Source of the DNA: Bacillota bacterium
Lineage (GTDB): Bacteria > Bacillota > SHA-98 > UBA4971
Direction of reading: 5' to 3'
NCBI GenBank assembly: GCA_030024085.1
Contig: JASEJE010000020.1
Coordinates: 129 to 64,128 of the forward strand
Length of the DNA: 64,000 bases
Part shown: positions 43,335 to 59,407 of the stretch, piece by piece
How the letters are laid out: every line of letters begins with the position of its first letter
Position numbering within the stretch: position 1 is the stretch's first letter
Made by a program: the position numbers and the translations under genes
Notes under the pieces: generated by a model
What the model was told of the DNA's origin: nothing
Databases searched by the model: none
The model's input: the letters and a program-made list of their open reading frames with translations, nothing else

Positions 43335-43400
43335 TCACCGGCAACCCAGCAGCCGCTGGAACGCCCGAAGGGATTAATGAACCCTCACTTAGTACCGCTC
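43335..43400. repeat. MITE-like repeat remnant (3' end only)
   Basis: CACCGGCAACCCAGCAGCCGCTGGAACGCCCGAAGGGATTAATGAACCCTCACTTAGT matches the variant-2 3' terminus CACCGGCAACCCTGGAAAAGTGGCGGTGATTTCTGAACCCACACTTAGT. Confidence 0.45.
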
Positions 43401-43995
43401 TGTCACATATGGAGCGCTGGCAGTACCGTCACTTGAGCTGACGGCTGACGTACGTCACGGGTTCGTCCCCAACCGTTCCCTACGTCACCGTTGATAGCCG
43501 TCCGCTGATGTACATCATCGGTCCCGGCTTTACCCGTTCCCTACGTCACACATGCGAGGGGTAGCGGGACGTGCGTCACTCGTCAGGCTCTTCCCGTTCC
43601 GCACGTCACCCATCGGGGGCCAATGGGTGACGTACATCATCGTTGCCGCCTCACCAGTTCCCTGCGTCACGGGTTCTTCATGAATCGTTCCATACGTCAC
43701 CCGTCGAAGCGAGACGAGTGACGCACATCACGGCTCCGTCCCCAACCGTTCCCTGCGTCACGCTTGAGAGCCATCCAGTGATGTGCATCACCGATGCGAG
43801 CCTTACCCGTTCCCTGTGTCACCCATGCAACGGGAAGAATGATGTATGTCACTCGCCAGGCTCTTCCCGTTCCATACGTCACGCATCGAAGCCAATTGCT
43901 GACGCACATCACTCTCCACCTTACCCGTTCCGTACATCACGGGTCTCCCGGGAACTACACGATTGAGGGCCACCGCGGCCAGGAGTCGCCGTGCC
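43398..43995 (-). repeat. complex 60-bp-periodic tandem array, element B (inverted copy of 26490..27050)
   Basis: CCTTACCCGTTCCCTACGTCAC recurs every ~60 bp (43467, 43530, 43590, 43650, 43745, 43805, 43865, 43925). Both ~50-70-bp flanks are homologous, in inverted orientation, to the flanks of element A. Confidence 0.8.
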
Positions 43996-44051
43996 GGACA
44001 AACCCGCAGACCTGCCAAACCGGATGGCACTTCGTATCTGACAGGGCAGTG

Positions 44052-45110
44052 TTACCCGTGCCTGGCCCGCCGCGTGCCGGGCAGCCGCAGCCTAGGGCGG
44101 GCGAGGTAGCGCGTGAACGCGGTCGCGGCTTCCCGGAGAGGGGAGATCAGTGCACCCAGGGCCGCGCGGGCTGCGCCGGGCCCCTGCCGGGCGGATTCAC
44201 CCCGGACAGGCGCGTGAGCACTTCCCGGCCTCTCCGTTGCCTCTGCCGCCTCCGTTGCCTCCATTTCCGCCGTTGCTTCTACGGCCTCCATTTCCGCCGC
44301 TGACCGGGCTGCCCCTACCTCCAGCGCCGACGTCGTTGCATCCATTTCCGGCTTTGACTCCGTCGCTTCCGCTGCGCTGTTCGTCCCCGTTGCCCCCTCG
44401 GTCTCCGTCGCCAGCTCCGACGGCGCCGCATCAGCGCTCTGGTCGCCGGAACGCCGCTCCCCCGCCTCGATCGCCGTGATCACTGAAAGCACTACGGTCT
44501 CCAGCACAAGCGCGTCAATGACGACGGTCGCGGTCACGCATATCCTGCCAGGCCCAGCGACGGTCCGCCGCACGCCATCAGGGTCCCTCGGGGCCCGCCA
44601 CTCGTCCGCCTCCCTGGCGTCACATCCATGCTCGGAGCCATCGTCCCCGCAGGCGGAGCGGCCGACGCCCGCCGTGCCAGCCACGCCCGCCGCGATCCAG
44701 GCGCTCTGACATCCCACGCTGAAGCGCCCCTCCACGGACATGCCCCGGCGGAGCGATACATCTTCAATGAGAGTCCGAAGGTCCTCTTCCCAGGAAAGCG
44801 CGCGCACCGGCCTTCCGTCTGACAGGCAGTAAGCCCACACAAGGAGCGTCGCGGATGCGAGGGCCGACCCGTCGAAGACATCCCACGACGGGTCGAGCAC
44901 GTCGATGGTCAGGCCCACGACTTCCCGCACGCCCTCCGGCGCCTCGTGCCACAGGCTGACCGTGACCTCGCGCGCGAGCCTGCACACGACCCGCTCCACG
45001 CGCAGCGTCTCCGTCCTCACGCTGATGCCGCCGAACCGGTCAGACCCGCCCAACCCCCTGCGCCTCCCCGGGCCGAACCCGGCCGTGCGCTGCGCTCCAG
45101 CGCATTGCAT
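44052..45110 (-). CDS. hypothetical protein (Ala/Glu/Thr-rich C-terminus); gene model uncertain
   Basis: Long ORF with no recognised domain. Central part (LWHEAPEGVREVVGLTIDVLDPSWDVFDGSALASATLLVWAYCLSDG) looks protein-like; the ends are low complexity. Confidence 0.3.
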   Translation of the reverse strand: MQCAGAQRTAGFGPGRRRGLGGSDRFGGISVRTETLRVERVVCRLAREVTVSLWHEAPEGVREVVGLTIDVLDPSWDVFDGSALASATLLVWAYCLSDGRPVRALSWEEDLRTLIEDVSLRRGMSVEGRFSVGCQSAWIAAGVAGTAGVGRSACGDDGSEHGCDAREADEWRAPRDPDGVRRTVAGPGRICVTATVVIDALVLETVVLSVITAIEAGERRSGDQSADAAPSELATETEGATGTNSAAEATESKPEMDATTSALEVGAARSAAEMEAVEATAEMEATEAAEATERPGSAHAPVRGESARQGPGAARAALGALISPLREAATAFTRYLARPRLRLPGTRRARHG

Positions 45111-45121
45111 TGAATGCGTAT

Positions 45122-46210
45122 TCAGGAGGGCAAGGGCGTATTCTGCTGCCGGCCCGCGAATCCCCGAACCCGATCATCGAGCGCTGGGGCGTCCGTCGCG
45201 CGTCTGCCGGCCACGACGTCCTCATAGGCCGCGGCGGTGGCCTTTGCGGCATGTTCCCACGTAAAGCGTTCTCTCACGAGGACCGCGAGATCCTGCCGTC
45301 GCGGCGCGCTGTATGCCGCCACAACCGCGTCCCTTAGCGACTCGGCGTCGGCTGGGTCGCAGTACCAGGCGAGGTCTCCGAAGTAATCGCGTGTGGTGCC
45401 CCTGTCGGTAGACACGATGTTGCAGCCCGCCATCGCCGCCTCGAGACTTGCGAGGCCCGGCGTCTCGAACCAGCTCGGCAGCACGTGCACCCTCGCCGCG
45501 GCGTAGGCACAGGCGATCTGCGACTGAGGCATGAACCCGAGGAAATGGTGGCACGAGTCGGCCTCCTTCTTGCAAGCCTCGAAGTAGAACGGGTCGTTCA
45601 CCGGCCCGATGAACACCACGGGTAAGCCGAGGCCCCGCGTGGCCCTCACGAGGGCGAGCTGGTTCTTTCTCGGCGAGATCCTGGCGCAGCACAGCACGAA
45701 GTCGGCGACCGCGAACCGCGACGTAAACGCGCCGGGGTCGGCATCCGCGAAGCCCGGGTCGGCTCCGTTTGGCACCACGCGGTACGGCGCCACGACCCCG
45801 AGGTCCTTCTCGATGAGCCGCGCCTCGGCCTCGGCGTTCGGCAGGAGCATGGCCGTGCGCTCCACCACCCTGCGTCGCAACGGGTTGTCCCGGCGCCAGT
45901 ATTTCAAGAGCGCGCCCTGCTGCCGCGGGCTCTCATGCAAGATGTACTCCTCAGGGTTCCAGTAGATGGACGACACCACCACAGGCTTGCCCCGCCGCAC
46001 GGCGTTCTCGCACTGGGCCGCGGTCTCCGCCACCCTCGTCAGGTTGAAGAGATGCACGAGGTCATACCCGTCGAGGTCCGGCGCGAGCTCGCTCGTATGG
46101 TCCACCGTCACCCCGAGCGCTTGAAGCGCCCTCTTCGTCTCCAGGAGTTGCACGGTATCACCTGCAGGAAGGACGAGAAGGTCGGCCCTGCTCTGGAGAA
46201 GGACCCGCAT
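45122..46210 (-). CDS. GT4-family glycosyltransferase
   Basis: Motifs ISPRKNQ and PSWFETPGLASLEAAMAGCNIV (E-x7-E). 362 aa. Confidence 0.8.
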   Translation of the reverse strand: MRVLLQSRADLLVLPAGDTVQLLETKRALQALGVTVDHTSELAPDLDGYDLVHLFNLTRVAETAAQCENAVRRGKPVVVSSIYWNPEEYILHESPRQQGALLKYWRRDNPLRRRVVERTAMLLPNAEAEARLIEKDLGVVAPYRVVPNGADPGFADADPGAFTSRFAVADFVLCCARISPRKNQLALVRATRGLGLPVVFIGPVNDPFYFEACKKEADSCHHFLGFMPQSQIACAYAAARVHVLPSWFETPGLASLEAAMAGCNIVSTDRGTTRDYFGDLAWYCDPADAESLRDAVVAAYSAPRRQDLAVLVRERFTWEHAAKATAAAYEDVVAGRRATDAPALDDRVRGFAGRQQNTPLPS

Positions 46211-46322
46211 GTGTTCACCCCCTCACAACGTGTTAGCCCCCTCGCATTGGAAAGGCAGGTATCATCCCTGATACCTGCCCTGGTTTGTGGCCCGCCGGTC
46301 CCGGCCGCACCGCACTGCAGGG

Positions 46323-48617
46323 CTACGGATCGACGACGACCGGGATCTGATCGAACTGAGTGACCTTCACGTCTATCCTGATGACGACCTTCTCCGTGAA
46401 ACTGCCGGTCGCAGGGTCGAACTCCCAGACGATGTTCTCGATGAACGAGTGGTCCTGCTCGTCCATGCCCTCGCGCACCGGCACGTCGGGGTTGATCGGA
46501 GTGACCTCCACCATCTCGCTGAACGGCAGGTCCTCCGCCAGATGGTGGACGAGATCGTCGGTGCCCACGTAGAAGATCTGCTTGTGCACGACGCCCTGCA
46601 CTATGACCTTGCCGTTCTTCACGATGGAGCCGATCTCGCTGATCCTGGCCTCCACGTCCACGATCTTGGTGGCCGGGAGGGTCTTCGTCTCCTCGATGAG
46701 CTTCTGCTTCGTGCCGTGCCCGACCACGAGGTCGGTCGCGATGACGGTACCGTATGGCTCCACGGCAACAGGTATCTGCTCCATCTCCGTGACCTTCACG
46801 CCAAGGAGCAGGATTATCTTCTGCGTGAGCGTCCCGGTGGCCGGGTCGAACTCGAACACGAGGTTGTCGACGATGGAGTGATCCTGCGAATCCATGCCCT
46901 CCTGCACCGGGAAGTTCGGGTTGAGTGGCGGCACCTCCACGAGGTCACTGAAGGCGATGTCCTCAGCGATGTGGTGAACGAGGTCGTCGGTGCCGACGAA
47001 GAAGATCTGCTTGTGCAGCGTGCCCTGGACGATGACCTTCCCGTTCTTGACGATGTGCTTTATCCTGGATATGCGCGGGATGATCTCCATCACCTTCGTA
47101 GCAGGGATTGTCTTCGTTTCTTCGATGAACTTCTGCTTCGTGGCCTCGCCAACCACCACCGCGGCCTTGATGAACGTGCCGTATGGCGAGAGTGCCACAG
47201 CGATCTGCTCCGTGTCCGTGACCTTTACCTGCAGCCTGAGTACGATCTTCTGGGTTAGAGCGCCGGTCGCAGGGTCGAACTCGAACACGTTGTTCTCGAT
47301 GACCGACATGTCGCGCTGGTTCATGCCCTCGGTGACCGGACGGGCCGGGTCGAGCGGCACCACGTCCACGAGCTCGCTGAAGTCCATATCCTCGGCAAGG
47401 TGGTGCTCCAGGTTATCCGTCCCGATGTAGAAGATCTGCTTGTGGACCGTGCCCTGGACGATGACCTTGCCGTTCTTCACGATGGACCTCACGTTGGTCA
47501 GGACGGGAACGATCTCCACTATCTTGATGGCCGGAACGGTCTTCGTCTCCTCCAGCAGCACCTGCCTCGTGCCGTGGCCGATGACCCTCTCCACCTTGAT
47601 CGTTGCCTTCTGGTCCACGATCTGTGTTATGTCAATCATCTGCGAGCCTCCTTTCAAGCTCCTGCCGGAGCTTTCTGGTGAGCGCCTGAGGAAGGCGGGC
47701 CCCGCCTTCCGCGCGTCCCCCCTTTCCTTGAGTTGTGGTCTATGCTGATCGGACGGGCGTAAACGCCCCTGGGTTTGATCGTTCGTGTGGGCACCGCGCA
47801 AGAACGTAGCGTCCTGCTCCCGACGGACTGCGCCTGAAAGGGCGACCGCGTCGTGGCCTCGCATGCCAGGCGGATGATCCCCCCGGAACTCAGGCAGCGG
47901 TCCAGAGCCGCCTGCAGGCGCGGGCGATGAGTCAGGGTCTGAGATGGCATGCGGGGTGGTGTCGCCACGGACCTCGTCTGGGCCGTGCCCGGTGCTCCCG
48001 ACACAGTGTCGAGAGCCTTCGGCGGCCGGTCGCGCCAGCCTGTCGCTTCGCCATGAGGTACCGGCGGCCAGGAAAAGGTGTCTCCGTTGTCGAGCTGGTA
48101 GGGAATTCCCGGGGTTGCCAGGCATTGCCGGGGCGCCGCCGATGGGTTCGGACTCGAGGGCAGCGGGCGCGCCATGAGGCCAGTCGGCCGGGCCGTCGGC
48201 GCCTGGGCTGACTGGGGAGAGGGTCTTGCCTGCGCCGTCGCGGTGCGCGTTGATCGAGGCAGGCGTGCTGGTACAGGTGGAAGCAGGGCTCGCATCTCGC
48301 GGATAGCGCGGGATGTCCGAGCCGCAGGGGGTGGGCGCGTCGCAGCGCGTCCTTCGCGCTCGCGAGGCATCGCTCGTCGCAACATCGCGGGCCACAGGTA
48401 TCGGCGCAGCCGCAGGAGGTACGTCGCGCCCTGTAAGCGAAGCCGTCCGGCGCCCTCGCCTGCGTAGCGACGTGCCGAGCACAGCCCCCATAACCGCAAG
48501 GGCCACGAAGACGATTATGATGAGCTGCCATCCGACGCCAAATGCCACAGCCGGTCCCTTCTCCCTGGCTTTCTCCCTATATCGTATTGACATCCCTGGC
48601 GAAGTGTGATGGGTCAC
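46323..48617 (-). CDS. DUF3794 protein with three near-identical ~130-aa repeats; N-terminal extent ambiguous
   Basis: Repeats VIGHGTRQVLLEETKTVPAIKIVEI... / VVGEATKQKFIEETKTIPATKVMEI... / VVGHGTKQKLIEETKTLPATKIVDV... Strong internal start MIDITQ at ~47639 with GAAAGGAGG. In-frame upstream ~1 kb encodes a putative TM helix (WQLIIIVFVALAVMGAVLG) plus a Pro/Arg/Ala-rich region. Confidence 0.7.
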   Translation of the reverse strand: MTHHTSPGMSIRYREKAREKGPAVAFGVGWQLIIIVFVALAVMGAVLGTSLRRRGRRTASLTGRDVPPAAAPIPVARDVATSDASRARRTRCDAPTPCGSDIPRYPRDASPASTCTSTPASINAHRDGAGKTLSPVSPGADGPADWPHGAPAALESEPIGGAPAMPGNPGNSLPARQRRHLFLAAGTSWRSDRLARPAAEGSRHCVGSTGHGPDEVRGDTTPHAISDPDSSPAPAGGSGPLPEFRGDHPPGMRGHDAVALSGAVRREQDATFLRGAHTNDQTQGRLRPSDQHRPQLKERGDARKAGPAFLRRSPESSGRSLKGGSQMIDITQIVDQKATIKVERVIGHGTRQVLLEETKTVPAIKIVEIVPVLTNVRSIVKNGKVIVQGTVHKQIFYIGTDNLEHHLAEDMDFSELVDVVPLDPARPVTEGMNQRDMSVIENNVFEFDPATGALTQKIVLRLQVKVTDTEQIAVALSPYGTFIKAAVVVGEATKQKFIEETKTIPATKVMEIIPRISRIKHIVKNGKVIVQGTLHKQIFFVGTDDLVHHIAEDIAFSDLVEVPPLNPNFPVQEGMDSQDHSIVDNLVFEFDPATGTLTQKIILLLGVKVTEMEQIPVAVEPYGTVIATDLVVGHGTKQKLIEETKTLPATKIVDVEARISEIGSIVKNGKVIVQGVVHKQIFYVGTDDLVHHLAEDLPFSEMVEVTPINPDVPVREGMDEQDHSFIENIVWEFDPATGSFTEKVVIRIDVKVTQFDQIPVVVDP

Positions 48618-50749
48618 GGATTGAAGGTCGCTCCCGTGACAACCGACACCGGGACGGGGCCGATCGTCCCGTCCACGATTCTCACGAGCGGGATCGTCTG
48701 CCGGGTGACCGTGGCTACCCTGGGGCCGGTGAGATCGGTGACGATGTCAAGCGGGCGCCGCGTCACGGTCCCGTCTTCCACAACGTCGACCAGGAACCTC
48801 TCCCTGGTCACAATGACGCCCGGCCCGATCACGTTCGTGACGACCTGGTACACCTGCTCCCTAGCGCAGCTCACGGTGACCAGGAGGATCACAAGCTGGT
48901 GAAAGACCGTGCCATTCTGGACTATCTTGACGATGACGTTCTCCACACGGGCGGAGGCGGAGATGGATGCGCCAGGCACGAGACCAGGGCAGTCCACGAG
49001 TGCGCTGAAGGGAAGCGTCTCCTCGACGTGATGGACGATGTCGTCGGTGCCGACGAAGAATACCTGCTTTATCACGACGCCCTCCACAAGGACGCTCTCT
49101 CCCATGACGCTGGCAGTAACGCCCTCGACGACGGTATCGACCGAACGTACCTTGATTGCGGGCACAGGCGCCGGGATAGTCCCCTCCAGGAGCAGCTGCT
49201 TCTCAGCCTGCGCCATCTCCGTCACCAGAATCCTCGCGAACTCGATGGTGATCGGGAGGACCCGCGTGATTATCTTCTCAACCAGAATCTGCGCGGCGCC
49301 CTCACCGATCACCTGCTGCACTTTCACCAGAAGGCCGTACGGTTCGACCGCAACGGGGATCTGGACCGTCTCCGTGACGGTCACGAAAATGTCGGCGATG
49401 ACTTTCTCCGAGATGTTCGTCCCCGTCTGGGCCGGGTCGAACACGACCGCCCGGACCTCGGGTCTCACGAACACGTTGAGGCCCGGCCTTGCGCCCGGCA
49501 CCTCCGCGAAATCACTGAATGGGATGGTGAAGGTCTCGGTAGCCTGCGTGCCCGCTGCGGTCACGTAGGTCACATCCTTGACTATGGCTCCCTGTATGAT
49601 CACTTTGTCCTCGATGGGGCGGGCCCGCACTCCATCGACCCGGGCAGTGATCCCGACGAGGCCCGTAGCCGGCTGTGAAAGGGTCACCGTTGTCTCCTCG
49701 AGTACCTCGGTTGAACCCTGCCCCAGCACGCGCTCTGTCTTGATGAGGGGACCTTCACCCATCGCCAGGACTATCTCGACGGTCTCCGTGACCTTCACAA
49801 AGACGTCGAGGAGCACCTCCTGGGCCACGAGGGTGCCCGTGGGGTCGAGGGAGAACGCCACGTCCCTGACATCCGGGTGCACCTGCACGTTCATCCCCGG
49901 CAGTGCCCCAGGGATGGCAGCGGTCACGGAGAAGTGCGCCACCACCCCCTGGTGGCGGTTCGAGCCGTCGGTGGCCACAAAGAATATCTGCTTCAGGATA
50001 TTGCCGCTCACCACGACCTCGCCAGGGTTCACCGTGATACCGGTGATCTCGGGCGTGGCGCGTATTTCCGTCACCTTCGTGGCCGGCACATCGAGCGTCA
50101 CCGTGCCGGTCTCCAGCACCTGTTCGATGGTCTCACCGACGACTGCTTCGGTGATCACCGGCGTGCCATACGGGTCCTCAGCGACGTGGATCTGGACGAA
50201 GTCGGTGACCACCACGTCCACATCGACGATCACCTTCTGGAAGATCTGGTTTCCGTCGGGGCTGAGCACCGCTATGACATTGAAGATGCTCGGATGCACC
50301 TGGACAAGCATCCCGGGCCTGGCGCCCGGGACGTCCACGAGGGCGGAGAAACGCATCTCTTCCGGGAAGTGGTGGACGATGTTGTCCTCGCCCACGAAGA
50401 AAACCTGCTTTGCAATGATGCCCTGGACTATCACCTTGTCGGGGATCACTTCAACGCCGACGCTTCTGACATCGGCGCGGATCTCCTTTATCTTGAGGGC
50501 TCTCATCGGCAGGGTGAATTGCACCTCGGGGCTGTTCGAAGTCCTCCCTGCGCTCGTCATGTGCTCGCCTCCCCCGGGCCTCCGCTCCGCTGCATGGATC
50601 GCACGCAGAGTGAGGGTTCGTTTCGCAAAGTCGGAGCATTTCTCCGTCCTCACCAGGCGCTCTGCTAAGTTCGGCAGCCTTACACCATATTTTATGAACC
50701 CGCGCCGTCCCTTGCCATCAGACTCCTGATACTGCCCTGTTACCTGCAT
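48614..50749 (-). CDS. multi-repeat DUF3794 protein (~5 repeats)
   Basis: Probable start MRALKIKEIRADV (~50506). Repeats such as VIVQGIIAKQVFFVGEDNIVHHFPEEMRFSALVDVPGARPGM. Stop overlaps the next DUF3794 ORF start. Confidence 0.7.
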   Translation of the reverse strand: MQVTGQYQESDGKGRRGFIKYGVRLPNLAERLVRTEKCSDFAKRTLTLRAIHAAERRPGGGEHMTSAGRTSNSPEVQFTLPMRALKIKEIRADVRSVGVEVIPDKVIVQGIIAKQVFFVGEDNIVHHFPEEMRFSALVDVPGARPGMLVQVHPSIFNVIAVLSPDGNQIFQKVIVDVDVVVTDFVQIHVAEDPYGTPVITEAVVGETIEQVLETGTVTLDVPATKVTEIRATPEITGITVNPGEVVVSGNILKQIFFVATDGSNRHQGVVAHFSVTAAIPGALPGMNVQVHPDVRDVAFSLDPTGTLVAQEVLLDVFVKVTETVEIVLAMGEGPLIKTERVLGQGSTEVLEETTVTLSQPATGLVGITARVDGVRARPIEDKVIIQGAIVKDVTYVTAAGTQATETFTIPFSDFAEVPGARPGLNVFVRPEVRAVVFDPAQTGTNISEKVIADIFVTVTETVQIPVAVEPYGLLVKVQQVIGEGAAQILVEKIITRVLPITIEFARILVTEMAQAEKQLLLEGTIPAPVPAIKVRSVDTVVEGVTASVMGESVLVEGVVIKQVFFVGTDDIVHHVEETLPFSALVDCPGLVPGASISASARVENVIVKIVQNGTVFHQLVILLVTVSCAREQVYQVVTNVIGPGVIVTRERFLVDVVEDGTVTRRPLDIVTDLTGPRVATVTRQTIPLVRIVDGTIGPVPVSVVTGATFNP

Positions 50750-50862
50750 CCTTACTCAGTCATCTCGACGTCGCGCCTTTGATCTCGGCGTCGCCCCTGC
50801 CGTCACGTGCGGCAAGAGAGAGGTCCCCGGACGCGTCCCGGTCTCGTACAAACGAGCCTGAT

Positions 50863-52386
50863 CTATCCGCCCAGCCTGCGGATCACCTCAGCCGCGGCAT
50901 GCTCCCATGTGAAGCCTGCCACCACACGGCTGCGGGCGAGGCGCCCCTTTGCGGCGGCCTCCTCCCTGTGGGCGAATATGTGGCGCAGGAGGCGGCAGAG
51001 GTCTCCCTCGTCCGGCTCTGCCCAGACAGGCGGCCCGCATGTAGGGAAGTCGCCGACGCGGTTCTCCGGAAAGACCGACTCCCTCGCAGGGATCAGGTAT
51101 GCCACGTCAGGGCCGCAGAAGTCGAGCCCAGCCCCGTGCCCGGTCACGATGACCGGCTTCCCGCAGGCCATGGCCTCGAGCGCCGGAAGGCCGAACCCCT
51201 CCGCCCTGTACGGGAGAACCAGGCAGTCGCAGGCAGTGTAGTAACCCGGCATCATCCATGGGTCGGCCTCGCCGTACAGGTACACCACGTCCGGCGCGTC
51301 CGGGTCCGCCCGCGCAGCCGCGATCGCACCCTCTACCGTCCCGTAGAAATAGTCCTTCACTACCAGCGAGACGTCGTCGGACCTTCGAAACGCCCGAACG
51401 TACGCCCTGAGCAGCACGTCGAAACCCTTGCGGCTCGTGGCGGCACCCCCGACGAAGAGGAACCTGTACCCGCGTGCCGTCGGAATGGACACACACGGCG
51501 CCTCGGGGTGAAACACGGTGGGATCGACTCCCGGATGGACCACGGCCACCTTCTCCGGGGCGATCCCGCTTCTCACGTAGCAGTCGCGCACGTAGCGCGA
51601 GTACGCCCACACCTCGTCCACGTTCTGCGCCACGGGGCAGACCCACGCGGACGGCAGGTACCCGTATTCCCACGGGAGGATGAGGACGAACTTCTCGCGG
51701 ACGTGTGGCCGCCTGAAATCAGGCGGCCACACGTGCCTCACATGCACGGCGGTCGCGGCTCCGACGTCCGGGCTCGTTCCCCGCCACGGCTCTAGAGGCC
51801 CCATGGCAGCGCGAACCGGCTCGTACCTGCACCAGGACAGCGGACAGGCCCGGTCTCCCTCGGCGTGATGCGGCGGAGCGTCCGGAGCACCAGCAAGGCT
51901 GGGGGCAGGGGCAGAGGTAGGGGCTATGGCATGAACCGGGGCAGGGCCGGGAGTAGGAGCAGGGCGGACGGCAACGCCCTTCCTCAGAAGTGCGAGCACC
52001 ATCTCCCTGTTTACATGGGCGAAGCTATGCACGCCTGTGAAGTCGCCTTCCCAGACAAGAGCCGGAGGCGAGCAGCGTTCTACCCTGCCGTGCGGTCCTG
52101 GCGGCGGCCCAGGCATCACTCCCCCGGCTATCGCCGATCCCGCCGCTCTTCCCATTCTCCAACCCCCTCCCGCCCTCGCTGTTGGTGACGACGTTTCCGC
52201 CCAGCCCCCTCCTGTCGCCGCCCGCAGCGCAGATCCCGCCGGCGCCGGCGGCGGCGCAACCTCCGCCGCAGCCTTTGCCGTGTAGCCCACCACAGCACGG
52301 CGCACCGTGGCGCGGCTCACTGCGCCGCCGCTACTACATGATCGCCCCGGCACGCTCGCCTTCCTCCAGCCTCGCGCGCCGTTCAT
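50863..52386 (-). CDS. GT4-family glycosyltransferase with Ala/Pro/Gly-rich N-terminal region
   Basis: C-terminal GKPVIVTGHGAGLDFCGPDVAYLI and FGLPALEAMACGKPV (E-x7-E). N-terminal ~150 aa low complexity; true start uncertain. Confidence 0.65.
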   Translation of the reverse strand: MNGARGWRKASVPGRSCSSGGAVSRATVRRAVVGYTAKAAAEVAPPPAPAGSALRAATGGGWAETSSPTARAGGGWRMGRAAGSAIAGGVMPGPPPGPHGRVERCSPPALVWEGDFTGVHSFAHVNREMVLALLRKGVAVRPAPTPGPAPVHAIAPTSAPAPSLAGAPDAPPHHAEGDRACPLSWCRYEPVRAAMGPLEPWRGTSPDVGAATAVHVRHVWPPDFRRPHVREKFVLILPWEYGYLPSAWVCPVAQNVDEVWAYSRYVRDCYVRSGIAPEKVAVVHPGVDPTVFHPEAPCVSIPTARGYRFLFVGGAATSRKGFDVLLRAYVRAFRRSDDVSLVVKDYFYGTVEGAIAAARADPDAPDVVYLYGEADPWMMPGYYTACDCLVLPYRAEGFGLPALEAMACGKPVIVTGHGAGLDFCGPDVAYLIPARESVFPENRVGDFPTCGPPVWAEPDEGDLCRLLRHIFAHREEAAAKGRLARSRVVAGFTWEHAAAEVIRRLGG

Positions 52387-53117
52387 GCCAGGCCCATCCT
52401 CTGTCGGATATAGTCGGCGATCACCTCAGGATGGCCGCGGGTGAACGGCCTTACGGGACGGTCATCGAGGATGCTGTCGGGCGAAATCCCCTCGTACGCG
52501 TTCTCCCCCTTCCCTTCGAGCATCGCGTACTTGACCCATCTCTTGAACACTTCGCGCTGGGGCTTCACGTACCCGTAATGGGCGAAGTGCAGGCCCGAGT
52601 CGGCTACGTTCGGCCCGGTGCCTTCGAGTCGCTCGTGGACCGCGCCGACCCACCGGAGGCCGGGCCTCCGCCTCACCAGGAAGAACTCCCTGCGGTACAG
52701 CGGGTCGCGGTCGCTCCGATTCTGCATAAGGTGCGGCTCCCGCATGAGGTGATAGAACCAGCAGTAGTAGACGTCTACGTATGGATTACGGATGAGCCTC
52801 GGGACCACCTCGTCGATGTCCCTATAGAACACCATGTCGGCGTCCATCGGCACGAGCCAGTCCCCGGTGGCCGCCTCAAGGGCCATGTTCCTGTTCACCG
52901 AGTAGTCAGGGCTATCGCAGTAAAGCACCGTGCGCGTTTTCCCGAAGCCTTTCGCGATCTCAACCGTGCGGTCGCTGGAATGGCCGTCCACCACGACGAT
53001 CTCATCCACCACGTTGTATATGGACTTGATTGAGAACGGGAGGAACTCCTCTTCGTTCTTCACGATGTACATGGCGCTCACCGTGCAGGTTGACATGAAC
53101 TCACCCCCCTCTCCCAA
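52383..53117 (-). CDS. GT2-family glycosyltransferase (small, SpsA-like)
   Basis: MYIVKNEEEFLPFSIKSIYNVVDEIVVVDGHSSDRT...DADMVFY (DxD-type nucleotide-sugar-binding region). Start probably MSTCTV (~53096). Confidence 0.7.
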   Translation of the reverse strand: MGEGGEFMSTCTVSAMYIVKNEEEFLPFSIKSIYNVVDEIVVVDGHSSDRTVEIAKGFGKTRTVLYCDSPDYSVNRNMALEAATGDWLVPMDADMVFYRDIDEVVPRLIRNPYVDVYYCWFYHLMREPHLMQNRSDRDPLYRREFFLVRRRPGLRWVGAVHERLEGTGPNVADSGLHFAHYGYVKPQREVFKRWVKYAMLEGKGENAYEGISPDSILDDRPVRPFTRGHPEVIADYIRQRMGLA

Positions 53118-54681
53118 ACCGTCTGACCACCCTCGCCCATACCTCGTCGGGTACCGCCGGAATCCGGCGAAGGTCGCCCGGTTCGCCGACGGACCAGTCC
53201 TGGTCGCCCTCGCCCGCCGTTGTCGCTGTAGAAGCGCCGGTCGACGTCGACCCGGAGGGCTCGCCGCTTGCCATGGTGGCGAGACGAGCGTACAGGCGTG
53301 CGTGTCGCCTTGCTATCTGCGCCCAGCTGTTGATCTCCACGTACCTGCGGATCCGGTACACCATCTCCTCGCGCCTGGCCGGGCTGGCCATAAGGTACAG
53401 GACCGCCTCCGCTATGTGCGCCGGGTCCGCAGACGGGATCTTGTAGACCTCCCCGTCGAGGTCGTCGAAGTAAGGAATGTCCGTGGCGATGATGGGCTTC
53501 TCCGCAGCCATGAGCGCGCGCACCGCCGAGGAGGTGCCGACGTACGCCACCTCCTTGTAAGGAAGGACGTTTATGTCCATGGCGTGCAGGATGTTCACCG
53601 CCTCCTGCACCGAGAGGTAATCCGTGCGCAGCACGAACCCATCGGCAAGCCCCGCGTCCCTGAGAAGGGCCGCAAGCTCGCCTGCATACCCGCTGCCGAA
53701 AAAGGCGGGGGCAGCCAGGGCATACACCTTCAGGTGGGGGTAGACTGTCTCCCGAAGGGACCTTGCAGCGACCGCAAGCTCGATGATACCCTTCTGCGGG
53801 AGCGCAAACCCGAAGTACCCGAGGGCAGGCCCGGTGCCCACGCCCAGGCTTGCGCGGACCGCACTCTCGTCGGTGAGAGCCACTCGCGGACAGCCCATGG
53901 GGATCACGTGGATATGGTCCCGGCTGACGCCGAGCATTGAAAGCTCATCGCGCAGCCGGGCGCTGTGGACGATCACCTCGCCGAACTCGTCCCTTATGAG
54001 GTTGTTCGCCGCCGCCTGGCCCGGGAGGAAGTCATGGACCGTGGCAATGACGCGGATGCCCCTGGCTTTGAGCTGTCGGACGAGGCGACGGAGATACCCC
54101 GGCTCGAACAGCTGGTACTCGAACTGCACGTGGGCGATGTGAAATCCCCCGCGCCGCACGAGCGCGAATACCTCCCCGTCCTGTCCTCTTGCGACTTCGG
54201 CCGTGTATCCCTGCGCGCGCAGCTCGTCAACGAGGAATCTCGTGTATTCCGCGACGCCGCACCGCTGTCCCCACGAAGGGACGACCACCAGGATCCCCGG
54301 CTGGGGCCGCAAATGGCTCCCCAGTTCCGGACACGGGTGCGAGCATGCATGGGAATGGCGGCAGGGGCGGGGCAAAGCGCCCTGGCACACACCTGGTCGC
54401 GTGCCTGCCCGCGTGCCTGCACGTGTGCAGGCACGCGGGCCTTGACGCGCGTCCGGCATCGCCTCCAGGCGGTGTGCGGCCGCGGGCTCAGCCATGGCGG
54501 CGCCGTCGCGCTGGACGAAAGTGCGGTTCCCGGGAAGCACCTGGAAGGCCTGCGGGCATGGCGGGCCCTGTAGGCCCTGCGCGCTCCGCCATGCTCGCGC
54601 ACTCGTGCCGAGTTGCATGCCGGAGACCCAGGTGGATCGGCAGGCTCTATGATACATGCGATGACACCTCCGAATGCCCAT
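53101..54681 (-). CDS. GT4-family glycosyltransferase, paralog of the N-terminal half of the next gene
   Basis: VVPSWGQRCGVAEYTRFLVDELRAQG...IAHVQFEYQLF mirrors VVPSWGKRCGISNYARALVEGLETCG...IVHFQYEFVLY in the 54647..57343 gene. Low-complexity termini. Confidence 0.65.
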   Translation of the reverse strand: MGIRRCHRMYHRACRSTWVSGMQLGTSARAWRSAQGLQGPPCPQAFQVLPGNRTFVQRDGAAMAEPAAAHRLEAMPDARQGPRACTRAGTRAGTRPGVCQGALPRPCRHSHACSHPCPELGSHLRPQPGILVVVPSWGQRCGVAEYTRFLVDELRAQGYTAEVARGQDGEVFALVRRGGFHIAHVQFEYQLFEPGYLRRLVRQLKARGIRVIATVHDFLPGQAAANNLIRDEFGEVIVHSARLRDELSMLGVSRDHIHVIPMGCPRVALTDESAVRASLGVGTGPALGYFGFALPQKGIIELAVAARSLRETVYPHLKVYALAAPAFFGSGYAGELAALLRDAGLADGFVLRTDYLSVQEAVNILHAMDINVLPYKEVAYVGTSSAVRALMAAEKPIIATDIPYFDDLDGEVYKIPSADPAHIAEAVLYLMASPARREEMVYRIRRYVEINSWAQIARRHARLYARLATMASGEPSGSTSTGASTATTAGEGDQDWSVGEPGDLRRIPAVPDEVWARVVRRFGRGG

Positions 54682-57600
54682 GCCCTGCCGTGGTCTCTCC
54701 GAGGATCTCTCGATAAAGCCGCGCGTGCTCCCGCGCCACGCAGGACCAGTCGTGCCGCTTGAGAAAGTCGCGCATGCGCCCTACCAGCTCGCCGCGGAGC
54801 GCGGGGTCGCCGAGAAGCCGGCGCAGCGCCTTCGCGATCTCGCCGGGGTCCTGGGAGGGGATCTTGTATACTTCCGGCCCGAGATCCGAGAAGAACGGAA
54901 CGTCCGTGACGATCATTGGCCTCTCGGCGGCCATCACGGTGCGCGCAGCGGCCGAGGTCCCGATGAGGCCGTGATCGCGGTACGGGAGCACGTTCACGTC
55001 CATGGAATGGAGCAGCCTCACAGCCTCGCGCTCAGTGAGATAGTCGTCGACGAGCGTCACCGCGTCCGAAAGCCGCAGGCGGTCGATGGTCTCCCGGAGC
55101 CGGGCGGCGAAGGCGCGCGAGCTCGGATAAGGCGCGACCGATGAGATCATGAAGCACTTGAGGGTCGGGTGGGCGCGTCGGACCTCCTGAACCGCCATGG
55201 CAAGCTCGATCATGCCTTTGTGGGGAAGGCAGAAGCCGAAGAACCCCACGGCCGGCCCCGTCCCTATGCCCAGTTGCGCCCGGGTCTGCGCATCGCTCGC
55301 GCCGGAGTCGCCATAGTCTCCGGGGCCGCCCGTGCCTGCGCCGCTATCCGCATTCAGACCCGGGCTTCCGCCTCCGGCTTTGCCGCCAGGAGAGTACCTG
55401 CTGCATCCCATCGGGATCACCACGACCCGTGCCGGGTCCGCACCCGCCCGGCAGTACGCCGCACGCGCCTCGTTCGAGTGGACGATGAGGCGGGAGAACG
55501 CTCGGGCGACGAAGCCGTTGTGACGGACCATTCCTGGAGCGAAGTCGTGGGCGGTGGCCGCCACCGCCACGCCTGCGTCGCGAAGGAGCGCCACGGCGGA
55601 TGAGAGATCGTCGATGTCATACAGAACGAACTCGTACTGAAAGTGGACGATGTCGACACGGTCTGCGCTCCGCGTTGGCGGCAGGAGCACCCCGGGCGAC
55701 GCCGAGGCGACGACGGTCGCCTGCACGCCGCACGTTTCCAGGCCCTCCACCAGCGCCCTGGCGTAATTCGATATCCCACACCGCTTTCCCCAGGATGGCA
55801 CCACCATAAGGACGCGACACGTTGCGCGCCCCAGTGCGTTCGCCGGCCTGTCTGCCGATCCCTCCGCCGGCCCGCCTGCGGGTCGGTTGGATGCCCCTGC
55901 CCCAGGCAAAGCCCGGGCCCGGGACCTGATCCCGGCATCCCCCCTGTATCTGCCGTCCTTCGCGATCTCTCTCACCCTGGGGACCGGCGGCGGTACCGTC
56001 CTGATGATGGGGACCTGCATCCTCTCAGTGCCCCGATGGGGCCGTGAAGGAGGCTGGCTGCCCCCGCCGCCAGGCCCGTCATCGGGTCCGTCTTCGCCGT
56101 GCGTCCCGGATGCAGATGCCGCGGCGCCGGCTGGTGGCGCCCATGTCGGCCCGCCGGCAGACCTCGTCGCCGCGCTCGCGGACATCCTGTCGTCGCCCGC
56201 CACCGCGTGCGTCGCACGCTTCTGCTCCTCCTCTACCTCGAGGAGCCTTGCGTACATGCGCCTCGCCGCCCTCTCCCACGTGAAGCCCTCCAGCACGTCC
56301 CGGCTGCCCCGCATGCCGATCTCCCTCGCCCGGGCCCGGTTCTCGTAGGCCCAGCGCATGAGCCTGCGAAGGTGCGCCTCGCTGGGGCGCGCCCAGCGGG
56401 AGCCTGCGTACACCATGTCATTCGGTATGCCGAAGGCGGGCACGGGCTCCAGGTGCTCCACGTCTATGAGCAGGCTGTTGTCGGCCGTCATGAAGTCCAG
56501 GTGGGACGACCAGTTGGTGCATATCGCCGGGACGCCGCACGCCATCGCTTCCATCGCGGTCATGTTCCATCCCTCGCCCCGGGTCGGCAGCACGAAGCAG
56601 TCGGCCGCCGCATACAGGCGGGCCATGTCCGCTGTGCTCACAAGGGTGGGAATGAGGATGACAGGCGGGCCGGCGTGCTTCCCGGCGACCCTCTGGAAGG
56701 CCGCGATCTCGTCCCTTATGCGCAGGCCGCCCGGATCGTACGTGGAGTTGTCGTGAACCCTGAGGATGAGACACACGTCTTCATGCGGCTCGAATTCCGC
56801 AAGATACGCCCGGAGGAGGATGTCGTAGCCCTTGCGGGGGATCCACTCGAAGACCGAGAGGAACGCGAACCCTCTCCTGCCTGTGACGGGCAGGGGCGGC
56901 ACACCGGGATGAAACCGGCTTTCGTCGACGCCAAGCGGCATGACACGGACCTTCGCCGCCTCGACCCCGCTATCGACGAACGTCGCCCGGTTGAACCTGG
57001 ACGGAACCCATATCTCGTCCATGAGGTTGCACCTTGCGACCCAGTCCTGCGGTATCCTGTCGGTCTCCAGCATGGTGAGGCCGATGGAATGACAGCCGGG
57101 CTCGCGCTCGAAGAACCCACCCAAGAAAGTGAAGAGGGTGGTCGCCCGTAGAATGTGGGCGTTATGCACCATCCTCTCCAGCAGCGAGCGCACAGCCGGG
57201 TCAAGCTCGACGCGGGCAGATCCCAGCGACCGGGGCCTGACGCGGATGTTCACCCCCAGCCTGTGGAGATGGAGCACGATGTTCCTGTTGACTTCGGCGT
57301 ACCCGGCCGCCTCGAACACGGGGCCGATATCTATCAGATCCACGAGACACCACCGTCCCGGAAAAAACCAGGAGCGGCCAGGCCGAAGCCTGGCGTGCTC
57401 GCGGGCATGGTCAAGACTCTGCGATATACTATGTCCATGGTCCGCGATGGGTTCCAGGGCATTAGCAGGCCCCGGTAGGGCATATAACTTGATCGGAAAC
57501 GGAGAGGGGGCGCCGCTATGGCCAGGGCTGGTGGGGCAGTGCTCGTGGTGGTGGTCGTGAGGCGGGCTTGCGCAAGCATCGCTGCGGGCGCCCTCCTCCT

Positions 57601-57940
57601 TGTCTGGCTCGCGGCGCTGACAGGGCGGGCGCTGCCGGTCGTCGCCCTCCCCCGGTCCGCGGCGGTCGGCAAGGTCATCGTGGTGGACCCCGGGCACGGC
57701 GGCATCGATCCGGGGTCTCACAACGGCGAGGGAACGATGGAGAAGGAGATCGTCCTCGAGATAGCGAGGGACATCTGCTACCTCCTTGCCAGGGCGAGGG
57801 CCGTGCCGATCCTGACCCGCCACGGGGACTGGGAGATGAGCCCCATCATCGAGCACGAAACCACGCGGCACAGGCGCGATCTCGCCGCCCGCATCCACAT
57901 CGCCCACCGCACGAACGCAGACGCGTTCGTGAGCGTCCAT
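54647..57940 (-). CDS. tandem two-domain glycosyltransferase (GT4-GT4 fusion)
   Basis: Two complete GT4 units (EGWNMTAMEAMACGVPAI and a second unit ending PFFSDLGPEVYKIP) joined by a Gly/Ala/Pro-rich linker. True start probably GTG near 57343 (VDLIDIGPVFEAAG); the ORF-track extension overlaps cwlD on the other strand. Confidence 0.6.
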   Translation of the reverse strand: MDAHERVCVRAVGDVDAGGEIAPVPRGFVLDDGAHLPVPVAGQDRHGPRPGKEVADVPRYLEDDLLLHRSLAVVRPRIDAAVPGVHHDDLADRRGPGEGDDRQRPPCQRREPDKEEGARSDACASPPHDHHHEHCPTSPGHSGAPSPFPIKLYALPGPANALEPIADHGHSISQSLDHAREHARLRPGRSWFFPGRWCLVDLIDIGPVFEAAGYAEVNRNIVLHLHRLGVNIRVRPRSLGSARVELDPAVRSLLERMVHNAHILRATTLFTFLGGFFEREPGCHSIGLTMLETDRIPQDWVARCNLMDEIWVPSRFNRATFVDSGVEAAKVRVMPLGVDESRFHPGVPPLPVTGRRGFAFLSVFEWIPRKGYDILLRAYLAEFEPHEDVCLILRVHDNSTYDPGGLRIRDEIAAFQRVAGKHAGPPVILIPTLVSTADMARLYAAADCFVLPTRGEGWNMTAMEAMACGVPAICTNWSSHLDFMTADNSLLIDVEHLEPVPAFGIPNDMVYAGSRWARPSEAHLRRLMRWAYENRARAREIGMRGSRDVLEGFTWERAARRMYARLLEVEEEQKRATHAVAGDDRMSASAATRSAGGPTWAPPAGAAASASGTHGEDGPDDGPGGGGSQPPSRPHRGTERMQVPIIRTVPPPVPRVREIAKDGRYRGDAGIRSRARALPGAGASNRPAGGPAEGSADRPANALGRATCRVLMVVPSWGKRCGISNYARALVEGLETCGVQATVVASASPGVLLPPTRSADRVDIVHFQYEFVLYDIDDLSSAVALLRDAGVAVAATAHDFAPGMVRHNGFVARAFSRLIVHSNEARAAYCRAGADPARVVVIPMGCSRYSPGGKAGGGSPGLNADSGAGTGGPGDYGDSGASDAQTRAQLGIGTGPAVGFFGFCLPHKGMIELAMAVQEVRRAHPTLKCFMISSVAPYPSSRAFAARLRETIDRLRLSDAVTLVDDYLTEREAVRLLHSMDVNVLPYRDHGLIGTSAAARTVMAAERPMIVTDVPFFSDLGPEVYKIPSQDPGEIAKALRRLLGDPALRGELVGRMRDFLKRHDWSCVAREHARLYREILGETTAGHGHSEVSSHVS

Positions 57941-58303
57941 GTGAACAAGGTGCGCTCCGCGTCAACCCGGGGGGCCATCGTCTTCTACAGTCGCAACAAC
58001 CCAGAGAGCAAACGGCTGGCCACGTGCATCCACAGCGTGATCCAGGACGTTGCCCCCCACCAGGGCATGTCGGTCCTGGAAGGAGACTACTACGTGCTGA
58101 ACGCTGCGAAGGTGCCCGCCGTCATAGTCGAGGTCGGGTTCATATCCCATCCTGAAGAGAAGGAGCTGCTCCTTGCGCCATCTTACCGCGGGCAGCTCGC
58201 CGAGGCCATCTTCGGAGGCCTCGTGCTGTTCTTCGAAGGGTCCGGAGTCACGCCCGAACGAAAGGCTCCCTCCCCCGGGGGGAGCAGGGAGCCTTCCCTC
58301 TGA
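57518..58303 (+). CDS. cwlD: N-acetylmuramoyl-L-alanine amidase (Amidase_3), CwlD-like
   Basis: VVDPGHGGIDPGS...FVSVHVN...VIVEVGFISHPEE metal-ligand pattern of Amidase_3. N-terminal TM/signal segment. Firmicute sporulation synteny. Confidence 0.75.
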   Translation: MARAGGAVLVVVVVRRACASIAAGALLLVWLAALTGRALPVVALPRSAAVGKVIVVDPGHGGIDPGSHNGEGTMEKEIVLEIARDICYLLARARAVPILTRHGDWEMSPIIEHETTRHRRDLAARIHIAHRTNADAFVSVHVNKVRSASTRGAIVFYSRNNPESKRLATCIHSVIQDVAPHQGMSVLEGDYYVLNAAKVPAVIVEVGFISHPEEKELLLAPSYRGQLAEAIFGGLVLFFEGSGVTPERKAPSPGGSREPSL

Positions 58304-59305: not shown

Positions 59306-59407
59306 GAAAACACCTCCCCTTACTTCTATAGTAAGGGGACTGGCCCCCCTGTTCAACTGGGAAATGCCACCATTATGCCTCTGACCTGGACCGTACTGCC
59401 GCCGGAG

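Follow-up and report, generated by a model that had tools for sequence, protein, structure and literature searches.

Sugars on the spore surface govern adhesion, hydrophobicity, dispersal and immune recognition, and they are understood only for C. difficile and a few Bacilli, in which they sit on collagen-like or crust proteins. Here, a 64,000-nucleotide stretch of a Bacillota genome (GCA_030024085.1, contig JASEJE010000020.1, positions 129 to 64,128; the whole stretch is referred to as the window) was analysed, in which five glycosyltransferase (GT) genes are interleaved with genes for SPOCS-domain spore proteins; the locus is probably a mother-cell system for glycosylation of the spore envelope. 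In C. difficile, SgtA, an enzyme with a GT2+TPR architecture, initiates O-glycosylation of the exosporium protein BclA3 directly on the polypeptide and without a lipid carrier (PMC7157674). For the crust and coat of B. subtilis, the available text of two reports describes mother-cell GTs that decorate outer spore proteins, with CgeA and CgeB/CgeD, spsA-L, cotSA-cotS and yfnH-D (PMC13577073, PMC7439481). PF12673, once called DUF3794, is now the "SipL, SPOCS domain" family, SPOCS standing for SpoVID-CotE-SipL, and according to the accessible text of two further sources the fold has been seen in no proteins other than those of the spore coat, the exosporium and the parasporal layer, e.g., SipL, SpoVID, CotE and CsxA/CsxC (bioRxiv 10.64898/2026.09.03.749163; PMC11513918). 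According to recent work, clostridial coats, exosporia and parasporal layers are built mainly of SPOCS/DUF3794 proteins. The accessible text of the same two sources mentions neither SPOCS glycosylation nor a GT partner, and in the literature searched, no glycosylation partner of SPOCS/DUF3794 is described and no paper links DUF3794 to a GT cluster.

Glycosyltransferases of the locus

The five GT genes contain six GT domains and all lie on the minus strand between 45122 and 57343. Pfam and NCBIfam matches were obtained for each of them, at the positions and on the single strand where an earlier reading of the same DNA (the original prediction) had placed them:

45122-46210, minus strand: GT_A, a GT4 enzyme; Glycos_transf_1 2e-16; EX7E motif at amino acids (aa) 249-257
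50863-52386, minus strand: GT_B, a GT4 enzyme; Glyco_trans_1_4 4e-17; EX7E at aa 396-404; no transmembrane (TM) helix
52383-53117, minus strand, probable ATG at 53096: GT2, a small GT-A enzyme; Glycos_transf_2 5.5e-20; DAD motif at aa 85-87
53101-54681, minus strand, maximal open reading frame (ORF): GT_C, a divergent GT-B protein; Glyco_trans_1_4 5.6e-9, Glyco_transf_4 4e-8
54647-57343, minus strand: GT_D, a soluble fusion of two GT-B modules, an EX7E-bearing GT4 (N-terminal) and a divergent GT-B (C-terminal)

The maximal ORF of GT_B starts within the stop of GT2 (ATGA). Gene calls in relatives suggest a start of GT_C near 54288-54495, with a 395-aa call in L084, and the GTG start of GT_D at 57343 matches the 896-aa gene call of the 95% relative. 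No TM helix was predicted in any of the five GT proteins. A Glycos_transf_1-type C-terminal domain combined with EX7E, the signature of CAZy GT4, was found in GT_A, GT_B and the N-terminal module of GT_D, for which the earlier GT4 labels stand. No EX7E was found at the catalytic position of GT_C or of the C-terminal module of GT_D, in which the motif occurs in the N-terminal module only (aa 257-265), and the Pfam Glyco_trans_1_4 matches there are weak; because EX7E is missing, the GT4 label of these two modules is less secure. The tandem paralogy claimed for GT_C and GT_D is real, but it involves the other half of GT_D: aa 130-464 of GT_C align with aa 511-877 in the C-terminal half (40% identity, 3e-79), whereas the N-terminal half (aa 93-367) pairs with aa 240-505 of GT_B (36% identity). 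L088 has two genes in place of the GT_D fusion, which is present in L085, L086, L089 and L092.

The best PDB sequence match of GT2 is the GT domain of GmaR, the flagellin O-GlcNAc transferase of Listeria (1.3e-15), followed by SunS. The top folds matched by its AlphaFold2 (AF2) model (pLDDT 96) are the peptide S-glycosyltransferases SunS/ThuS (5e-14), which beat polysaccharide GT2 enzymes by four to five orders of magnitude. These nearest relatives in fold and sequence all act directly on polypeptides in the cytoplasm. GT2 orthologs with at least 48% identity occur only in uncultured Bacillota, and the next tier of homologs (25-40% identity) consists of GT2+TPR proteins, which is the build of SgtA. 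With its relatedness to polypeptide GTs and its DAD motif, GT2 shows the GT-A/DxD character of the SgtA/GmaR-type protein O-GlcNAc transferases and is, as judged from sequence and a predicted model, a candidate for the initiating polypeptide glycosyltransferase. Unlike SunS and GmaR, GT2 has no C-terminal acceptor-binding extension (helical in SunS, TPR in GmaR), and neither a glycocin precursor gene nor a flagellin gene lies near it in the window. SpsA of B. subtilis was also considered as the closest relative of GT2 and was rejected; it is a distant fold match at rank 20, behind SunS/ThuS.

The arrangement resembles SgtA-BclA3 in that a cytoplasmic GT-A/GT2 enzyme is encoded beside a spore-surface protein gene, which in the case of SgtA is that of its known substrate. 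It differs in that GT2 has no TPR, in that its neighbours are SPOCS genes rather than collagen-like BclA (no collagen-like GXY-repeat ORF was found in any frame of the window), and in that five further GT-B domains and GDP-sugar genes accompany it, whereas SgtA is a single UDP-GlcNAc transferase.

It is conceivable, but unlikely, that the product is spore-associated without being linked to protein, i.e., a free polysaccharide or mucous outer layer resembling the B. subtilis crust, or glycolipids of the outer forespore membrane, with SPOCS proteins serving as scaffold only. The relatives of GT2 speak against this, since the closest in sequence and fold act on polypeptides rather than on lipids or polysaccharides and the next sequence tier has the SgtA architecture; in addition, none of the scanned ORFs of the window encodes an enzyme that would prime a lipid-linked or free polymer. 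The linkage to spore genes, the promoter motifs and the lack of export genes, all described below, fit this possibility equally well. Moreover, the weak PDB sequence matches of GT_D are the GDP-mannose transferases PimA and PimB, which are lipid mannosyltransferases, one of the SPOCS proteins (SPOCS_b) is membrane-anchored by a predicted TM helix, and in the B. subtilis crust the Sps, Yfn and Cge enzymes produce much of the sugar as polysaccharide, as far as the available text of the reports goes (PMC13577073, PMC7439481).

Linkage to SPOCS genes

Two PF12673 genes occupy the minus strand between GT_A and GT_B, so that the interleaving of GT and DUF3794 genes noticed in the original prediction was borne out by PF12673 matches at 46323-48617 and 48614-50749. 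It had overlooked three more SPOCS genes in the flank, one of them of the SPOCS+LysM type at 33572-35323 and the others at 35687-37129 and 37152-38786, as well as veg. The SPOCS genes, and a further gene (unkX) adjoining GT_A, are as follows:

48614-50749, minus strand, probable start 50560: SPOCS_c, four SPOCS domains; PF12673 7.6e-46; 2 Cys
46323-48617, minus strand: SPOCS_b, N-terminal TM helix, disordered linker and three SPOCS domains; PF12673 1.8e-23
37152-38786, minus strand: SipL-like protein, three SPOCS domains and a C-terminal LysM; PF12673 1.8e-57, LysM 1.3e-16
35687-37129, minus strand: SPOCS_a, three SPOCS domains, no cysteine; PF12673 1.7e-49
33572-35323, minus strand: second protein with three SPOCS domains and LysM; PF12673 4.8e-43, LysM 7.4e-13
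44052-45110, minus strand: unkX, 11 bp downstream of GT_A, kept only in close relatives

The five SPOCS proteins score 83-192 bits against a PF12673 gathering cutoff of 23.6 and contain three or four SPOCS domains each, like the known SPOCS proteins SipL, SpoVID, CotE and CsxA/CsxC. They are cysteine-poor (0-4 Cys), as is the morphogenetic SipL/CotE class. Two of them (37152-38786 and 33572-35323) have three SPOCS domains and a C-terminal LysM and are thus SipL-type in architecture only. Unlike known SPOCS proteins, SPOCS_b adds a membrane anchor (TM helix at aa 33-51) and a long disordered linker of ~266 aa rich in A/P/G/R/S; its N-terminal 326 aa are kept in frame in relatives, which indicates a real extension, and its start overlaps the stop of SPOCS_c. 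The ATG of SPOCS_c at 50560 has a GGGGGAGG ribosome-binding site, and the gene calls of relatives give 648 aa. unkX, whose orthologs are 41-90% identical, has no Pfam or NCBIfam match and no BLASTP match to the 680-aa SPOCS-like protein described below; weak matches (hhalign against SPOCS_a with E 0.22, and sub-threshold hits to a custom SPOCS hidden Markov model (HMM) with E 0.05-9) suggest that it is possibly a degenerate SPOCS domain. Its single-sequence AF2 model (pLDDT 40) was not used.

The conservation of this linkage was surveyed in 80 species-level genome loci around GT_A homologs (41-95% identity), which were screened with the proteins of the window and the custom SPOCS HMM. SPOCS ORFs were found within 10 kb in 47 of the 80 loci, and in 39 of the 80, from 95% down to 41% GT_A identity, fewer than 400 bp separate the end of a SPOCS ORF from the GT_A gene that follows it on the same strand; many of the 47 are related metagenome-assembled genomes (MAGs), and the counts are not independent events. 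In distant loci, the gene abutting GT_A encodes a ~680-aa protein without a Pfam match, which the custom HMM recognizes as a divergent SPOCS-repeat protein (up to 5.7e-45). Some of these distant loci are labelled Capillibacterium and Hydrogenispora, both Bacillota incertae sedis at NCBI. GT_A is the GT most deeply linked to SPOCS. The original prediction had named linkage in relatives as the check between a spore-surface system and one for capsular polysaccharide (CPS) or the surface layer (S-layer), and the linkage found, in these 47 loci with 39 directly upstream, is to sporulation genes and not to CPS or S-layer export genes.

The gene cluster is syntenic in all close relatives; the clustering is not due to chance. 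The L084, L087, L088 and L011 lineages share the order of the window (veg, cwlD, GTs, SPOCS, SPOCS, GT_A), whereas in L090 and L091 the order differs, with GT_A, a SPOCS gene and, further on, GT2, an ortholog of the N-terminal part of GT_D (GT_Dn) and a GT_C-like gene, the stops and starts of successive genes overlapping. When ten contexts of GT2 orthologs were sampled, spore-envelope genes (SPOCS or a BMQ_0737-type coat gene) were present in eight. In L085 and L089, the cassette comprises, among others, a methyltransferase, a cysteine-rich protein, an NTP-transferase, an Rmd-like reductase, GT2 and a GT4-GT4 fusion; for the cysteine-rich protein, the match is to the BMQ_0737 family of morphogenetic spore coat proteins (1.4e-12, below the curated cutoff). 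GTs that adjoin and are co-oriented with spore-envelope genes, the arrangement of spore-surface glycosylation loci, are also found in the window.

That this co-location is meaningless, the gene order having simply been inherited within one clade, is barely credible, since the linkage holds to 41% GT_A identity and ~25-40% SPOCS identity and recurs in the rearranged orders of L090 and L091 with abutting or overlapping stops and starts; the origin of many loci from related MAGs, which makes the counts overstate independence, is the point in its favour.

Three further observations were made in the relatives. A 162-176-aa protein (NGYFDIEAA..EFP.GW..NGD.GT) without a Pfam or NCBIfam match lies directly beside GT2 in cassettes that lack SPOCS genes (L085:9474-10004; L089:8690-9220; two copies in L086, at 9495-9983 and 13917-14432; L092:6417-6923), the L085, L086 and L089 proteins having been compared by sequence and that of L092 by size and position only. 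The window has no such gene; in the SPOCS-less cassettes, the protein might serve as an acceptor or a sugar-binding partner. Homologs of the Bacillota-type locus are also deposited in bins named Betaproteobacteria, Bacteroidota, Actinomycetota and Bathyarchaeota (L007, L026, L030, L040; P0005, P0244), of which L007 and L026 carry SPOCS and GT_A and L030 and L040 a GT_A homolog only. At least L007 looks like a binning error: its GT_A is 79% identical to that of the window and is accompanied by SPOCS, ManC-like and Rmd-like genes, and it comes from the same study as a Betaproteobacteria-labelled YabG. Gas-vesicle genes (GvpA repeats, GvpL/F) occur less than 10 kb from GT clusters in two unrelated Bacillota loci (L003:15956-16948 and L085:16803-17561).

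GDP-sugar genes and the absence of export genes

GDP-D-rhamnose feeds glycan pathways such as those of the common polysaccharide antigen of P. aeruginosa and the S-layer glycan of Aneurinibacillus thermoaerophilus, whose assembly begins on undecaprenyl phosphate and requires both an ABC transporter and a ligase. Two genes of the window may belong to this type of chemistry, the second of them encoding a short-chain dehydrogenase/reductase (SDR):

38901-40076, minus strand, maximal ORF with the real start probably ~30 codons later: ManC-like sugar-1-phosphate nucleotidylyltransferase; NTP_transferase 3.4e-52
39983-41029, minus strand: Rmd-like SDR of the GDP-4-keto-6-deoxy-D-mannose reductase type; PF16363 1.6e-85

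The best NCBIfam match of the ManC-like protein is NF052502 man1P_GTase (295 bits, against a cutoff of 440), and its PDB matches are a mixture of UTP-glucose and GDP-mannose (mannose-1-phosphate guanylyltransferase) enzymes. The best solved relative of the SDR is Rmd (2pk3, GDP-6-deoxy-D-lyxo-4-hexulose reductase; 1.6e-89, over the full length), which places it with the Rmd enzymes and agrees with the deoxyhexose-type enzyme foreseen in the original prediction. The two genes had been placed 10 kb upstream of the GTs; they are indeed nearby, but 4-6 kb from GT_A and on its 3' side in the direction of transcription. Copies of the Rmd-like SDR with 64-74% identity co-occur with GT2 and GT_D in the distant cassettes L085, L089 and L092. 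This co-travelling argues, at the level of gene content, that the GDP-sugar genes of the window are functionally tied to the GT cluster.

The window resembles the GDP-D-rhamnose pathways in its Rmd-type SDR, its several GT4-type transferases and possibly its ManC-like enzyme, and differs from them in that it encodes no carrier-linked start, ABC transporter, ligase or canonical Gmd. Among the ORFs scanned with Pfam across the 64 kb, there is no phosphoglycosyl transferase, Wzx/Wzy, polysaccharide ABC exporter, flippase, polymerase, flagellar or SLH gene. The parts of a lipid-carrier-dependent polysaccharide locus (CPS, O-antigen or S-layer glycan), namely an initiating enzyme together with Wzx/Wzy or an ABC exporter, are thus lacking among these ORFs. 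The spore surface is built inside the mother-cell cytoplasm, and therefore neither a lipid carrier nor a flippase nor a polymerase is needed there; the GT parts list fits direct cytoplasmic glycosylation.

The B. subtilis crust likewise combines several soluble GTs, a mix of GT2 and GT4 enzymes and dedicated nucleotide-sugar pathways. According to the available text of the reports on it, however, its structural proteins are CotY/Z and CgeA, as opposed to the SPOCS repeat proteins of the window, and its legionaminic acid and rhamnose are supplied via dTDP/UDP/CMP routes, as opposed to a GDP-mannose/Rmd-type route (PMC13577073, PMC7439481).

Soluble GTs and missing export genes would also be expected if the product stayed inside the cell for use in sporulation or dormancy, e.g., as a mannosylated compatible solute or an oligosaccharide for storage or protection. 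The GT4 and GT-A families include solute synthases, glucosyl-3-phosphoglycerate synthase being among the distant matches, and an alpha-glucan-type cluster lies elsewhere in the window. Such a product is nevertheless very improbable: six GT domains far exceed the needs of a solute pathway, no phosphatase or acceptor-synthesis genes are present, the nearest relatives of GT2 are polypeptide GTs, and the tight and recurrent coupling to structural SPOCS genes would be left unexplained.

Promoter-like sites and timing of expression

Four promoter-like sites and a hairpin were found around the locus:

57423-57452, minus strand: P1, putative sigma-K-type site ACCCATCGCGGACCATGGACATAGTATA, in the gap between the divergent GT_D and cwlD genes, ~80 bp ahead of the start of GT_D
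50685-50719, minus strand: P2, promoter-like footprint GATGGCA-N14-TCATA(A/C/G)AATA(T/G) of the GCA(A/C)-N15-16 type, upstream of SPOCS_c
43230-43263, minus strand: P3, putative sigma-K-like site GGTAACACG-N13-GGGCATAAAATGCA, a regular-expression match upstream of the GH18-like gene
38798-38831, minus strand: P4, GCACATTTTGGTTAGTCGCCCGCATATAGTAGAA box, shared by all close relatives, upstream of the SipL-like gene
46249-46279, minus strand: hairpin with a 13-bp stem and a short T tract between SPOCS_b and GT_A; -21.7 kcal/mol, z -3.6

P1 is the sole match to the strict sigma-K pattern AC-N16-17-CATAnnnTA in the 128 kb of two-strand sequence of the window and recurs, in identical form, in the 95% relative L084 only. 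P2 is kept in eight close relatives amid diverged flanks, CATA-type -10 boxes also occur in L011 and L088, and the distant loci have GCAC-N15-CATATACTGTAC and GCACA-N14-TCATATATTATA boxes upstream of orthologous SPOCS genes. P3 is kept in L004 and L010. A looser sigma-K pattern matched at three separate places no more than 200 bp ahead of a minus-strand start, namely those of GT_D, the GH18-like gene and yabG, and none of 300 Markov simulations, counted in the same way, reached the observed near-start count, the consensus being taken from distant model organisms and the spacing window having been widened after the data were seen. Strict and loose sigma-E regular expressions gave no match in the window. 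The stem of the hairpin is invariant and its loop variable in ten relatives, and it is likely to be a partial terminator or attenuator. Two transcription units seem to lie on the same strand, one running from P1 through GT_D, GT_C, GT2 and GT_B and the other from P2 through SPOCS_c, SPOCS_b, the hairpin, GT_A and unkX. Such motifs suggest that the locus would be expressed with mother-cell (sigma-E/K) timing.

Mother-cell timing would be at odds with a role in vegetative cells, where the GTs could serve a glycoconjugate such as a flagellin, an S-layer glycoprotein or a secondary cell-wall polymer and the cassette would merely have been inserted beside sporulation genes. The best-matching Rmd structure (2pk3) is that of A. 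thermoaerophilus, in which GDP-D-rhamnose feeds the S-layer glycan, and the substrate of GmaR is flagellin. Further points in favour are the sigma-A-like reading of P2, the presence of GT_A-family proteins outside spore-formers and the L086 cassette, which adjoins che genes, an SLH protein and NeuB. Since NeuB-type pathways also serve the B. subtilis spore crust, as the available text of one report has it (PMC7439481), the L086 context does not discriminate. A vegetative role is considered a little less likely still than a spore glycan not linked to protein: the scanned ORFs of the 64 kb include no flagellar, SLH, export or lipid-carrier gene, the GTs are interleaved and co-oriented with SPOCS genes in many lineages with differing gene orders, the cassettes of L085 and L089 carry a BMQ_0737-type coat gene, and a putative sigma-K-type site precedes GT_D.

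Proposed pathway for glycosylation of the spore envelope

The reading considered probable is that the locus encodes a mother-cell spore-envelope glycosylation system in which a GmaR/SunS-like GT2 primes a polypeptide, GT4-type enzymes add to the chain sugars derived from GDP-mannose, a 6-deoxyhexose among them, and GT_A is coupled to SPOCS. We infer the timing of expression, the sugars, the acceptor and the order of enzyme action from sequence comparison as follows. The locus would be transcribed in the mother cell during coat assembly, as suggested by the CATA-type sigma-E/K-like motifs and the neighbouring genes. GDP-mannose and a D-rhamnose-type GDP-6-deoxyhexose may then come from the ManC-like and Rmd-like enzymes, whose genes lie 4 kb away, in line with the closest solved homologs of the two enzymes. 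GT2 could put the first sugar directly on a polypeptide, as its nearest characterised relatives do, and the GT4-type enzymes may subsequently lengthen the chain. Finally, GT_A, as the member most tightly coupled to SPOCS, may act on or beside the SPOCS layer.

Several observations weigh against this reading. No canonical Gmd is encoded in the window, where the sole SDR scores 180 against the TIGR01472 gmd cutoff of 415 and no second SDR was found; Gmd may be encoded elsewhere in the genome, or the Rmd-like SDR may be bifunctional. GT2 comprises 237 aa with PF00535 as its only Pfam domain and has no TPR acceptor-recognition domain. With regard to timing, no clean sigma-K match was found upstream of the first GT in the 68% relative L088, and the assignment of P2 is ambiguous because a sigma-70 scan also accepts it as ATGGCA-18-TAAAAT (sigma-A-like); the distant origin of the sigma-K consensus and the spacing adjusted after the fact belong here as well. 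With regard to linkage, the related MAGs behind the survey have already been mentioned. The L086 and L092 contexts of GT2 have no spore gene within 10 kb, and the L086 cassette adjoins chemotaxis (che), SLH and NeuB genes. GT_A-family proteins with 38-46% identity are found in non-sporulating Patescibacteria, Bathyarchaeota, Poribacteria and Armatimonadota, and some Bacillota GT_A homologs have no SPOCS genes nearby. Spore specificity is therefore not a property of the entire GT_A family, and on the evidence of gene neighbourhoods a large subclade of it is SPOCS-coupled.

The spore-surface glycan system with a GDP-deoxyhexose put forward in the original prediction is thus partly supported: the linkage to spore genes and the Rmd-like SDR were recovered, and of the Bacillus enzymes named there, SpsA proved a distant fold match of GT2. 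DUF3794/LysM proteins, which it proposed as glycan acceptors, would be plausible acceptors from their position in the locus. Going further, it is possible, though doubtful, that the SPOCS repeat proteins are themselves glycosylated to form a cytoplasmically assembled glycoprotein spore layer, with GT_A as a dedicated SPOCS-partner GT across a class-level group of uncultured Bacillota. By analogy with GtfA/GtfB of serine-rich-repeat adhesin glycosylation, the EX7E-bearing and EX7E-less GT-B modules (fused in GT_D, separate as GT_B and GT_C) might then be pairs of a catalytic and a non-catalytic acceptor-binding partner.

Neighbouring genes and other features of the window

The minus strand carries nearly all real genes from 33.5 to 63.4 kb. 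In addition to the ManC-like and Rmd-like genes and the three SPOCS genes listed above, the GT locus is flanked by genes for cwlD-like, ykwD, veg and yabG products, and a LysM/GH18-like gene follows on the side of unkX:

41390-43177, minus strand: protein with PG_binding_1, LysM and GH18-like parts, of the YaaH/SleL-like cortex or coat hydrolase type with a SleB-type PG-binding domain
57518-58303, plus strand: CwlD-like N-acetylmuramoyl-L-alanine amidase, divergent from GT_D; Amidase_3 4e-41
58487-59410, minus strand: YkwD-family CAP protein with a signal peptide and hydrophobic N-terminus; TIGR02909 183 bits, cutoff 171
59478-59756: veg, between yabG and ykwD, as in Bacillus
59968-60873, minus strand: YabG sporulation peptidase; TIGR02855 320 bits, cutoff 270; CATA-type promoter-like site at 60912-60938

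Of the two neighbours named in the original prediction, the ykwD-like gene was confirmed above its cutoff, and for cwlD TIGR02883 is the best match, at a score (164 bits) that stays below the cutoff of 221. No SpoIVA gene was found in the window. The YkwD-family protein has, after its signal peptide, a G/S/T/Y-rich stretch (YYTTTNGSTYYGTTYNPG...) and a (PQ)n repeat ahead of the CAP domain, and a CAP gene occurs near GT_A homologs in ~14 other loci. Strong sigma-A-type boxes (59790-59870; TTGACA...TATACT, TATAAT) precede veg, unlike the CATA-type boxes elsewhere in the locus. A long low-complexity insert, (GNGSRS)n followed by (ER)n, separates the LysM part of the LysM/GH18-like protein from the GH18-like one. 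In most relatives the Rmd-like gene directly follows the LysM/GH18-like gene with short gaps, whereas the window and its 95% relative have an extra ~360 bp between the two.

Between unkX and the LysM/GH18-like gene, an intergenic array at 43453-43940 consists of nine copies at ~61-bp spacing of a motif ending in CCGTTCC(C/A/G)T(A/G)CGTCAC and is rich in short palindromes of the GTGACGTACGTCAC type. A segment of ~700 bp with the array is missing in the 95% relative, where the same two genes are ~157 bp apart. Tandem Repeats Finder gave no match in 43100-44150, although another repeat search shows the array there, and Rfam gave none; at gathering score, Rfam has no match in the whole of 33000-64000. 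The array might be a degenerate CRISPR-like array, a binding-site array or a mobile insertion. Apart from the GT locus, a second carbohydrate cluster at 9799-16775, which looks like an alpha-glucan pathway, encodes a fusion of NTP_transferase and phosphoglucomutase/phosphomannomutase (895 aa), a protein resembling GH57 branching enzymes, and a GT4/GT5 protein of 589 aa that resembles glycogen synthases.

The GC content of the window is ~64%. An exact-sequence search with GT_A gave no match in the collection used, in which the closest relative is the Bacillota MAG JBLNDE010000043, with ~95% DNA identity to the window. YabG homologs above 59% identity all come from uncultured organisms, and the best cultured ones reach only ~50%; the host is therefore an uncultured, deep-branching, endospore-forming lineage of Bacillota with core endospore genes. 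Membership of Limnochordia was considered, but given the incertae sedis status of Capillibacterium and Hydrogenispora and the remoteness of the cultured YabG homologs, the lineage is assigned to no class here.

Implications

The principle of the proposed system is not new; it would differ from the C. difficile and B. subtilis systems in its SPOCS partners, its GDP-mannose/Rmd-type route and a GT2 that has no TPR domain. The GT-SPOCS module, which occurs in dozens of genomes, is a testable candidate for spore decoration in a large and mostly uncultured branch of spore-formers, whose carrier organisms are common in anaerobic digesters and the subsurface. If the proposed pathway is correct, the locus would amount to a self-contained cassette that glycosylates proteins from GDP-mannose and GDP-6-deoxyhexose and needs no export.

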